Shown piece after piece: positions 15,901 to 18,900 of a stretch of DNA of 64,000 nt. The DNA lies in assembly GCF_988243305.1 (NCBI RefSeq), contig NZ_OZ547136.1, one strand, 5' to 3'. Position numbers: made by a program. Every line of letters begins with the position of its first letter. Within the stretch, counting starts at the first letter, position 1.

Positions 15901-18900
15901 GCAGAAGAAGGCTGTCAACAGAGAGTTCGGGTATGAATTACATAATTAAGTAACATGGTGTTCACAGAACACGCAGTTACCGGACACATCAGTTTTCCAT
16001 TCGCTCCCTGGCAGTACAGGCTTCCCCTCTGACGGGATAGCCTGAAAAAATAACACAGAAAATTATTTGTTATAATTAATATAACTTACTCAAAAAAAAG
16101 CGACGAGAAAATCAGCATCAACGAACAATAAGCGCCAATACGTGATAACAAATGGCAGCCATATTTATCTGCAGTATAAGCAATGGACAGGATAACCACA
16201 CCAGAAACCGTCAGCATAAAATCCATTTGAACTTCCCCGGACAAAATCGACTCATCTAAAGATTTACAGCTCTTTTTATTATCAATATGTTAAAAGTAAA
16301 ATAAACAGATGTTCAATAACACGAATACAAAAACGTGCTGAAATTCAATGAATCCATTTCTGTGTCATCAATTAATAGTGATAAACATCCGGCTTCTTCC
16401 ACCATCGCACCGGACAGGCGACTATGAGGGGACAACGCCGCGCTCCGTTAACGCGGTAAACCCCGGTGTGTATCGTTTTTGATTATCCCCGCACACTCGC
16501 GCAGAGGAGTCTCCCTGTCGGGCTGCGGTCTCTGTTAATGAGGGAATACAGCGACGATACGGCGCATCAACAAAACTTATTTCAGGCACTGAGTACGGAT
16601 ATATTCCTGCGCCCCTTCCAGTTGCTTGTGCATCGTCATCAGCCGCTCTCTGAGGGTGAAATAATCCCGTTCAGCGGTGTCTGCCAGTCGGGGGCCGGTT
16701 GCATTATCCACGCGGGCGGTGCCGGTGGCTTCACGCACGGGACCTGGACAGGTGGCGTTGATACGCAGGCGCTTACGACCAGCGGCAACGTCAGCGCGAA
16801 GAGTTTCATTTTCAGCTCTCGCATCGGCTAATTCCCTCGAGTATTTTGCATCGAGCGCAGCAACATCACGCTGACGCATCTGCATGTCAGTAATTGCCGC
16901 GTTCGCCAGCTTCAGTTCTCTGACATTTTTGTCGCGCTGGGCTTTGTAGGTAATGGCGTTATCACGGTAATGATTCAGCCCCAGACTAAGCGCACCACAG
17001 GCCACCAGCATGACAATAATCACCACACACAGAACACGGTTCATATCACCACCAACGGATTGCCCAGACCAGAACAGCAATGGCCACAATACGAATGGCA
17101 AATGCCATTGCCCGAATAAGTTCAGCACTCATCTTTTTAAAGTTCACGATTTCAGCGCAATGACCAGTTTTGCCAGCCCATATAGCATCGGAGACACAGC
17201 AATACCAACAGCCACCCACTTAATAGCAAAAGCCAGCGCTCTGCTGATGTCATCAGTCACTGTCACCCCAGCAGCCCCGACGAAGACAACATCACCCAGG
17301 CGAGGGACAGAAAAAGAGCAACCAGCATTAGTGAAAATGAAATACCGACAATCACACACAGGACCTTTGCCGGCGTTATGAGTTTGTCTGACATAGCTAC
17401 CCCTTAATTGCCACAATTAACTGGGATACTACCCATAAAAAAGGGATGCTCCAGACCAGCAAAAATTTCCAGTTTGGTAATTGACTAATCATGAGTCGCA
17501 ACTCCCTAATCAGTTTGCTAAAATCAATCAAGGCAGCCTCCCATAGCTTACTGCCATAAAAACAAAACCCCGCTTGCTGCCAACAAACGGGGTTTTTACT
17601 TTTATTCACTTACGTTTCGCCAGTTCGCAGGATTTCGTGTTATCCGCCCGCGTGGCCATGCCTTATTTTTCAGCAAAATATTCTGCTTATCTGTCGATAC
17701 CCCAGCACGCCAGCGCGCTCTCCTGGTCACGACGGGATACCTGACCGTAGCAGTTGTTTGAACGAATACGGCAGTCTCTGCCACCGTCCTTAATCCACCA
17801 GCGAATCGCCTCACACGCTCCCCTGCGGTCACCAGCATTCAGCCGCTTATAAAACGTCGACGGGAAACACTTACCGGGGCCAATGTTATAGGGACAGAAT
17901 GACGCTATACCCGCTTTCTGTGGTTCGGTCAGTGGAACTTTAATATTGCGCTCCACCCATGCCAGCGCCTTATCCCGTTCAATGGCATTAACCTGGTCGC
18001 ATTTTTCCTTCGACAGTTTCATGCCCGGAATAACAGGTTTACCATCCACCATTGTGGCACCGCGGCAGATGGTCCAGATACCCGCACCATCACGGTATGC
18101 CGTTGTGTGGTTACCTTCTTTTTCATCCAGAAACTGGTCGAGAATATCAGGCGCAGGCGCACCGATGGCAATCAACGCCAGAACGGCAGCCGACAGGCCA
18201 TATTTGATTTTGGTGTTCATGGATATTTATCAGGATTTATCGGTTCCGAATCCCTGGATATGTTAAATCTTCAGCCCGCCAGCGGTAGGACACTGGCGTT
18301 TTTCCTGATGGCTGAAATATATCTGACAATTTCAGTAGAGGATTAACCATGCATAACGATCAACATAATTATGATTTATGCCTGCAAGCCATAAATGAGC
18401 GGGTAAAATCAGAGTGCCTCTTACTCCTCCCACAAGAACACGATGCAGTAAAATCCATTCAGGCTGAGCCGTATGGACATCTCACACCTGTGACTCTCGG
18501 CATTATCGCCAGAGCATTAACACAGCCCATGCTTATGCGTATTAAGACCAATATAAATAACTGGTTGAATGAAGAATTAAGCTACCTTGATTGTGAGTGG
18601 GACAATCATTACGCAAAAACACAAAAAGAACGCATCTTCAGTCGATTATCCAGCAACAGATAACGAGCCACCTTATATACGCCCTTTCAGATAAGTCATC
18701 CCCGGCTGCATCCAGTCAACAGGTGCTTTCTTAAAGGGCGTATTATCAAAATCACGCAGAAGAGCCTCCAGCACAACTGCATCATTGTCAGCACCACTGG
18801 CCATCATTTCAATCTCAGCTGCTACCTGCAGATATCCCATGCAACGACCAATGCGCTTCATCAGCCCCTGCTTTTTATTGTTCTTCAGGTAATCAATGGC

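Follow-up and report, generated by a model that had tools for sequence, protein, structure and literature searches.

What lies between the endolysin gene R and the i-spanin gene Rz of a lambdoid prophage, two genes that abut in the Escherichia coli K-12 prophages Qin and DLP12, and does it take part in lysis? The question is raised by a lambdoid prophage in a stretch of 64,000 nucleotides of contig NZ_OZ547136.1 (RefSeq assembly GCF_988243305.1), hereafter the window, whose minus strand carries the late genes. Between the end of R (17687) and the start of Rz (17044) is a spacer of 642 bp (17045..17686), in agreement with the roughly 640 bp given in the initial annotation. In the direction of late transcription, this spacer holds a hairpin, then four tightly packed small open reading frames (ORFs), p1 to p4, each encoding a single predicted helix, and then Rz (Table 1). 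Because R and Rz abut in Qin and DLP12, the spacer represents an insertion relative to those prophages. It is most likely an accessory module of the late (lysis) operon of lambdoid phages, both conserved and mobile. That p1-p4 act as accessory late inner-membrane micro-proteins that tune membrane steps of lysis is a further proposal, drawn from sequence comparison, that we regard as evenly balanced.

The spacer had been described as unusual. That is true in comparison with lambda, phage 21 and the K-12 cryptic prophages, in all of which R and Rz abut, but not for E. coli at large: the whole arrangement, at a coverage of at least 80%, is present in 586 of 5426 complete E. coli genomes, or about one in nine.

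Small genes and hairpin of the spacer

The p2 gene is a real conserved coding frame. The initial annotation had singled out a 43-aa hydrophobic ORF with one transmembrane (TM) segment and an AAGGGG Shine-Dalgarno sequence, and this ORF is present as described, with the AAGGGG 5 nt 5' of its ATG and a best 19-residue hydropathy window of 2.87; it is real, but it is one of four small hydrophobic ORFs in the spacer rather than the only one. A search of 50,697 phage records found all 43 codons kept in 276, at 63-100% identity and mostly in Shiga toxin (Stx)-converting phages, and the frame has no insertions or deletions even where identity falls to about 58-63%. It is a narrow family, with 103 clusters at 90% identity, 29 representatives at 50% and practically all members in E. 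coli. Its alignment begins with an almost invariant MSDKLI and has VGISFSLMLV as its core. Pooled over five independent sequence pairs, the proportion of synonymous differences (pS) was 0.294 versus 0.155 for non-synonymous ones (pN; Fisher p = 1.8e-4), indicating purifying selection. Other frames of the same DNA gave ratios of 0.75-1.23, except for the antisense -1 frame (0.53), as expected because that frame shares its third positions with a hydrophobic gene. The p2 ATG is replaced by ATA in Min27, BP-4795 and Sakai, where the frame instead opens at an ATG located five codons further upstream, in overlap with the stop codon of ant (MGWLMISDKLI…).

A p2 homologue has also been seen in expression data. 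XECs191 (ECs_5707; MMGWLMISDKLITLVKSLCVLVGISFLVMLVAIFFSTAWRVLTLSGLVG) is among the novel small genes of enterohaemorrhagic E. coli (EHEC) Sakai supported by ribosome profiling (Ribo-seq) in Hücker et al. 2017 (PMC5597208), in which it was predicted to be an inner-membrane protein with one helix. In lysogeny broth (LB), that study reported 30.0 and 12.6 reads per kilobase per million (RPKM) for its transcriptome and translatome, respectively, a ribosomal coverage value (RCV) of 0.43 and a coverage of 0.55. No homologues of p1, p3 or p4 were found in the Sakai Ribo-seq tables. For p2, what would have spoken against the ORF, namely a frame lacking both conservation and a translation signal, is not what we observed: the frame is conserved and a homologue has a weak Ribo-seq signal. 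A short resemblance between p2 and the N-terminal helix of Rz (shared VLCV…MLVA) was considered as a sign of duplication and rejected (hhalign probability 0.5%, E = 0.11).

The remaining three ORFs are similarly small and hydrophobic. Across p1-p4, lengths range from 28 to 44 aa and the best 19-residue hydropathy windows from 1.9 to 2.9, and p1, p2 and the full-length relative of p3 described below carry a net positive charge in their N-terminal flanks. The junctions are operon-like: p1 and p2 are joined as TAG-CT-ATG, p2 and p3 overlap in GTGA, and p4 leads into Rz as TGA-T-ATG. The p1 gene starts at a TTG with GGGAGG 5 nt upstream (the alternative ATG at 17492 would give 31 aa), and its start region is embedded in local hairpins. 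Comparison with the diverged copy at locus L093 gave 5.8 differences at 27.3 synonymous sites and 3.2 at 101.7 non-synonymous sites, and in loci of the ANT type (see below) the p1 TM core is kept behind another N-terminus. The third ORF, p3, is a 5'-truncated version of p3L, a family of 60-aa proteins of which it retains the C-terminal TM core. This family extends to Salmonella and E. marmotae, and between E. coli and Salmonella its ratio of non-synonymous to synonymous substitution rates (dN/dS) is 0.13-0.24 (p <= 2e-5). p4 shares no DNA similarity with p3, but it aligns with the p3L profile (hhalign probability 78%, E = 1.8e-5); a p4 variant with an in-frame one-codon insertion also exists.

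All four ORFs match PHROG profiles (Table 1), falling into phrog_4906, phrog_6632 and phrog_1115/3246/4493, each listed as 'unknown function'. Searches of Pfam, NCBIfam and PADLOC gave no family match for p1-p4, with Pfam and NCBIfam empty even at E values of 1 to 10, and an Rfam scan of the spacer returned nothing but noise at E <= 5. In E. coli 55989, the Prokaryotic Genome Annotation Pipeline (PGAP) already lists p2, p3 and p4 as hypothetical proteins, and its version of p3 has 51 aa (WP_042004856.1). Longer versions proposed by PGAP or ORF-finder (70 aa from GTG 17609, 90 aa from 17416 and 57 aa from 17219) have unconserved N-terminal parts that overlap neighbouring genes, and the shorter starts were therefore preferred. 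An alternative frame within p3 (MTSAERW…, 17152..17253) was rejected, as it accumulates non-conservative changes where the p3 frame is kept. A 123-aa ORF on the plus strand (17010..17381), antisense to p4, p3 and most of p2, was set aside as an antisense shadow of hydrophobic genes: it is of low complexity and the modules it spans are shuffled elsewhere, although dN/dS alone does not reject its frame.

The hairpin that precedes these genes is a real, covarying RNA structure under selection on the sense (lysis-gene) strand. As initially annotated, it has A and T runs on both sides, with its stem at 17564..17596. Its minus-strand form, with 15 pairs of which six are G-C, is followed by UUUUGUUUUUAU and folds at -25 kcal/mol (z = -3.85), with none of 200 shuffles as stable. 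In a set of 26 close but distinct variants of the full arrangement the flank varies and the hairpin does not. The fold is also kept in 11 more distant variants, with both bases replaced in a compensatory way at 3 of 13 pairs across E. coli and Salmonella; one position is U.G, A-U, U-A or G-C depending on the sequence. The hairpin co-occurs with the small genes in Salmonella and at L093.

The description of this element as a bidirectional terminator stands in part. The plus strand still folds (-15.3 kcal/mol, z = -3.1), but much more weakly than the minus strand because its U.G pairs turn into A.C mismatches, and a pattern scan called a terminator on the minus strand only. The U.G pairs suit the sense strand, and the hairpin, a predicted intrinsic-type terminator, would act mainly in the sense direction and not equally both ways. 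Downstream of it, a consensus promoter scan found no sense-strand promoter-like site ahead of the ORFs in any of the gene arrangements scanned. The loop carries a -35-like TTGGCA, which was rejected as a promoter because it is unconserved among variants.

On the opposite strand, a TG-extended sigma-70-like site (Table 1) points at the hairpin and could give an RNA of about 180 nt that is antisense to p1 and ends there. Such plus-strand sites occur at chance level (2 found versus 2.2 expected), and a promoter scan of the diverged L093 copy found no site homologous to this one. The p3L loci of E. coli and Salmonella carry a different antisense sigma-70-like site (…-TATACT) that is aimed at the hairpin from a homologous position and lies in a 47-nt block free of substitutions. 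E. coli and Salmonella have the same sequence throughout this block, which lies at the 5' end of p3L (L094 2306..2352 and its homologues; L098; L101 2519..2560), whereas pS is about 0.49 in the rest of the gene. An in-frame ATG inside the block has a Shine-Dalgarno sequence of its own and would give a 48-aa form beside the 60-aa one; such a possible dual start was noticed in p3L only. The invariance of the block would be explained equally well by the antisense site, by the internal start or by recent recombination.

Upstream of the hairpin, in the 3' flank of R, lies a non-coding block of about 60 nt that is hypervariable, holding 23 of the 55 columns that vary among 26 distinct full-length variants. 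Within it, the motif GGCGGATAACAC(G/A)AAATCC is kept across E. coli, Stx phages and Salmonella. The block could be a recombination joint or a 3' untranslated region element.

Table 1 Features of the R-Rz spacer and of the surrounding late region, listed in the direction of late transcription
Feature	Coordinates	Strand	Match or basis	Remarks
Q antiterminator	24535..24918	-	Pfam Phage_antitermQ 3.5e-53	Upstream of lysis genes; late-operon context
SASA/DUF6645 esterase	19850..21703	-		Between Q/RNA genes and pinholin
S21-type pinholin	19484..19699	-	Pfam Phage_holin_2_1 9e-33	Head of the same lysis cassette
DUF1327 protein, 268 aa	18673..19479	-	Pfam	
104-aa ORF	18349..18663	+	phrog_1853	Antisense within lysis cassette, between 268-aa protein and R
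R, phage-21-type (signal-anchor-release, SAR-type) lysozyme, 177 aa	17687..18220	-	Pfam Phage_lysozyme 2.8e-25	Upstream border of spacer
Hypervariable non-coding block	17613..17671	-	Two haplotypes	3' flank of R, upstream of hairpin
Intrinsic-terminator-type hairpin (predicted terminator)	17554..17600	-	Scan, folding, covariation	Stem followed by U-rich tail
p1, 44 aa, MIDFSKLIRELRLMISQLPNWKFLLVWSIPFLWVVSQLIVAIKG	17397..17531	-	phrog_6632 1.3e-12	Single helix
Sigma-70-like site CTGACA-18-CACAAT (predicted)	17388..17417	+	9/12 matches	TG-extended
p2, 43 aa, MSDKLITPAKVLCVIVGISFSLMLVALFLSLAWVMLSSSGLLG	17263..17394	-	phrog_4906 4.5e-21; RefSeq WP_001280935.1	Predicted N-in, single TM helix
p3, about 40 aa	17144..17266	-	phrog_1115 6.4e-25	GTG start overlapping p2 stop
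p4, 28 aa, hydrophobic	17046..17132	-	phrog_4493 3.8e-6; WP_032140280.1	Stop 1 nt before Rz ATG
Rz, i-spanin, 155 aa	16577..17044	-	Pfam Phage_lysis 2e-51; phrog_13	Downstream border of spacer
Rz1	16639..16824	-		ORF embedded in Rz

Arrangements in related phages and prophages

A comparison of R-Rz junctions with those of related phages, which the initial annotation had proposed as a check, revealed small genes that nearly always sit between R and Rz, in shuffled combinations. Our census comprised 183 fetched loci; alignment searches gave mostly near-identical loci, and divergent DNA was taken from protein-encoding contigs and phage records. The general order was R-hairpin-[small genes]-Rz, with at least nine combinations. 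The window type, p1-p2-p3-p4, was found at about 75 loci and p3L-p2 at about 70. Further combinations were p3L-p4, p3L-p2-p3-p4 and p1-p2-p3-p2', the last with two p2 copies that are 58% identical (one such spacer, L034, places them at 293..424 and 564..695, ahead of Rz). In Salmonella, p3L alone lies beside a holin/lysozyme/Rz set in which the holin and lysozyme are different. Three combinations, ANT-p1'-p2, ANT-p1'-p2-p3-p4 and, in Stx phages, a short ant-p2, lie behind a different hairpin that they share. In most loci the full arrangement is 97-100% identical, with about 12 variable columns in 486 nt, indicating recent spread.

The R-Rz joint thus also takes ant genes. The short ant gene ends in a sequence (…NMLIDFVLADTGKG, at about 810..840 of the L005 spacer) that resembles the 5' end of p1 (LIDFSKL…, window 17519..17531), and ant-p2 fusions exist among database entries (P0106). 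Together these two observations suggest a recombination joint at TTGATTGATTT.

The small genes also accompany other lysis cassettes. At L093, hairpin-p1-p2 lies directly upstream of a lambda-S-type holin and no Rz follows; just downstream of that cassette is a gene resembling pertussis-toxin S1 or the enterotoxin A subunit (2613..2853). At L183, ANT-p1''-p2'' follows a GH108 endolysin and occurs with two other holins; here and at L184, a 51-aa lipoprotein (LLVGC lipobox; 2667..2822) comes after ANT-p1''-p2'', with no Rz called. Apart from one Salmonella arrangement and one decayed copy, both described below, every examined locus has the small genes inside or beside a lysis cassette, and these cassettes are of four unrelated types.

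Lysis tuning and its alternatives

How might such genes act? In lambda, unmodified polymerase stops at terminators of this kind and Q-modified polymerase reads through them. By analogy, the predicted terminator would stop unmodified polymerase, and Q-modified polymerase would continue into p1-p4, so that the peptides would be expressed only late in lytic growth and stay silent in the lysogen. Translationally coupled and each consisting of essentially one helix, p1-p4 would insert N-in into the inner membrane, where they may adjust lysis through helix-helix contacts with TM segments of the pinholin, the SAR endolysin or Rz. Genes for Q, the pinholin and the R21-type lysozyme precede the spacer on the same strand, a setting that supports late-operon expression. 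Since they are missing from phage 21 and the K-12 cryptic prophages, the peptides would be accessory. Of the two readings offered in the initial annotation, an accessory lysis peptide is plausible and fits the position inside or beside several unrelated types of lysis cassette; the other, a type I toxin, found no support (see below).

Several observations weigh against a role in lysis. Termination at the hairpin and read-through by Q-modified polymerase are both carried over from lambda biology, and lysis evidently needs no p1-p4, given their absence from the phage 21-like prophages of K-12. A literature search by accession, locus tag and peptide string gave no match, and we found no paper that names p1-p4 or assigns them a function and no experiment linking them to lysis. 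Selection on p2 is only moderate (dN/dS about 0.5), similar to the ratio of the antisense -1 frame, and that frame is free of stops in 12 divergent p2 sequences. The Ribo-seq signal of XECs191 is low, comes from uninduced cultures and concerns a multi-copy prophage sequence. The linkage to lysis genes is also not absolute: in Salmonella (L101 and L102), a 66-aa p3L relative (2440..2745) stands alone after tail-fibre genes, with terminator-type hairpins on both sides. The upstream one of these hairpins resembles that of the window, and a scan of the L101 copy found no sense promoter. Lastly, decayed, frameshifted or fused copies exist (L092, L079, P0071, P0111 and P0216), the decayed copy at L092 following the same kind of cassette as that at L093.

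A bolder form of the proposal is that the hairpin together with the p1-p2 pair, p3L and p3/p4 constitutes a new class of Q-gated lysis regulators. These would dock on the glycine-zipper helix of the pinholin, the SAR anchor or the Rz anchor and set the time of lysis and of Stx toxin release, with the terminator, and possibly an antisense RNA, keeping them off in lysogens. The helices that would dock carry an invariant G17xxxS21 in p2 and G41xxxS45 in p3L. We consider this version unlikely as it stands.

The alternative that survives best, although we think it rather unlikely, is that p1-p4 are moron micro-proteins, expressed late or in the lysogen, with a membrane role unrelated to lysis, such as excluding other phages, blocking their re-adsorption to or injection into dying cells, or modulating a membrane protein of the host; the R-Rz site would then merely tolerate insertions. 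The free shuffling and variable copy number of the small genes are moron-like, the same joint accepts ant genes, the stand-alone p3L relative occupies a classic moron site in the tail-fibre region, and the XECs191 reads were obtained without induction. Morons and terminators in Q-antiterminated late operons have been described (Juhala et al. 2000, as cited in PMC4104026), and the spacer resembles them as an optional, shuffling insert of the late region that is bounded by an intrinsic-type terminator and would be tolerated through read-through by Q-modified polymerase. A classic moron, in contrast, has its own promoter and a downstream terminator, whereas here the terminator lies in front and the scan gave no promoter. 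The lack of any match to a PADLOC defence family also argues against this alternative, as does placement with lysis cassettes of four unrelated types at all but the exceptional loci.

Improbable, in our view, is a second alternative, in which the ORFs have no protein function and are either recombination scars or translated only to couple ribosomes into Rz, their conservation reflecting the recent spread of one DNA segment. The near-identity of the full arrangement at most loci, the origin of p3 by truncation of p3L and the damaged copies are all compatible with such a history, and the tight stop/start overlaps suit coupling. Against it, dN is below dS for p1, p2 and p3L in divergent comparisons, TM cores are kept while N-termini are swapped, loss of the p2 start codon has been compensated, and the likeness of p4 to p3 exists at the protein level only. 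The same proteins are moreover kept where no Rz follows (L093 and L183).

Very improbable is the type I toxin-antitoxin-like locus that the initial annotation had raised, in which p1 or p2 would be a toxin silenced by a plus-strand RNA starting near 17424 and ending at about 17605 on the reverse side of the hairpin: although p1-p4 are, like the type I toxins Hok, Ibs, Ldr, TisB and ShoB, hydrophobic, shorter than 60 aa and prophage-borne, with antisense sigma-70-like sites in the window and at p3L loci and a two-sided hairpin at which an antisense RNA might end, they differ from those toxins in having no sense promoter of their own by consensus scan, here or at related loci, and hence no stand-alone toxin transcript, in being coupled to one another and to Rz as in an operon, in matching no described toxin family or Rfam small RNA, and in following a hairpin whose U.G pairs and energy difference show selection on the sense strand, while the plus-strand site occurs at chance frequency and is missing from the L093 scan and the 47-nt block has other, equal explanations.

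Prophage context and known lysis proteins

The late genes of the prophage follow one another on the minus strand in the order Q, transfer RNA (tRNA) genes and an STnc100-type RNA, esterase, pinholin, DUF1327 gene, R, spacer and Rz/Rz1, followed by Nu1 and then terminase A. R is a sequence homologue of the R21 structures 3HDE and 3HDF and of RrrD (4ZPU), and its N terminus has two basic residues followed by a weakly hydrophobic stretch, LSAAVLALIAIGAPAP. In the 268-aa protein, the DUF1327/YdfR match is confined to the N-terminal 100 residues. The 104-aa plus-strand ORF had no match in Pfam or PADLOC, and both it and the 268-aa gene are optional among related loci. Rfam matches elsewhere in the window (21926..22116, 22196..22438, 30835..31023, 47600..47907 and 61166..61243) comprised STnc100, three tRNAs, a C4 antisense RNA with isrK, MicL and C0465; the three tRNAs and the STnc100-type RNA are those placed after Q. 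As in DLP12, Q is separated from the lysis genes by a porin gene, which here occupies 23204..24346 of the plus strand.

Membrane-protein genes between an endolysin and an Rz-type gene are not without precedent. The P2 cassette has the order Y-K-lysA-lysB-lysC, in which LysA, a non-essential membrane protein encoded between the endolysin and the Rz equivalent, is antiholin-like and thought to adjust lysis timing. The small genes of the spacer share this position in a late operon. LysA is a multi-pass protein of roughly 140 aa, whereas p1-p4 and p3L are up to four separate single-helix peptides of 28-60 aa with no sequence similarity to it. p1-p4 also had no holin or antiholin match in Pfam, the holin of the cassette being the S21-type gene.

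A second point of comparison is the releasin of phage Mu, gp25 (DUF2730), a 99-aa protein with N-out/C-in topology and a 73-aa cytoplasmic domain that acts on the membrane anchor of a SAR endolysin (PMC9239132). The releasin features taken from that work are a length of about 100 aa, an N-out TM helix and an acidic cytoplasmic domain. The spacer peptides are likewise small, predicted single-pass inner-membrane proteins encoded a few genes downstream of a SAR endolysin. They differ in their length of 28-60 aa, their predicted N-in topology, their almost complete lack of a soluble domain and the absence of a DUF2730 match, and this phage also has a pinholin. Spanin features, either the periplasmic coiled coil of an i-spanin or the lipobox of an o- or u-spanin, were not found in p1-p4 either, as the C-terminal flanks have 2-14 residues and no lipobox, and a genuine Rz/Rz1 pair is present downstream. 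A survey of Stx-phage lysis cassettes (PMC8136144) leaves the small ORFs unmentioned, and the main text of a paper on Hfq and anti-small RNAs in EHEC (PMC4104026), which deals with small RNAs near PR', contains no mention of endolysin, lysis, endopeptidase or antirepressor.

The novelty of these findings is modest, as the ORFs are already annotated as hypothetical and one homologue has already been reported as translated. What is gained is a cleaner annotation, with four ORFs, their likely starts and a predicted terminator on the sense strand. If the peptides do not tune lysis, the spacer is ordinary accessory prophage DNA of the kind already carried as hypothetical. If they do, very small single-helix regulators would join the known phage lysis proteins, and, with p2 lying directly before Rz in Stx-converting phages, the timing of the Stx-phage burst and of toxin release would be affected.

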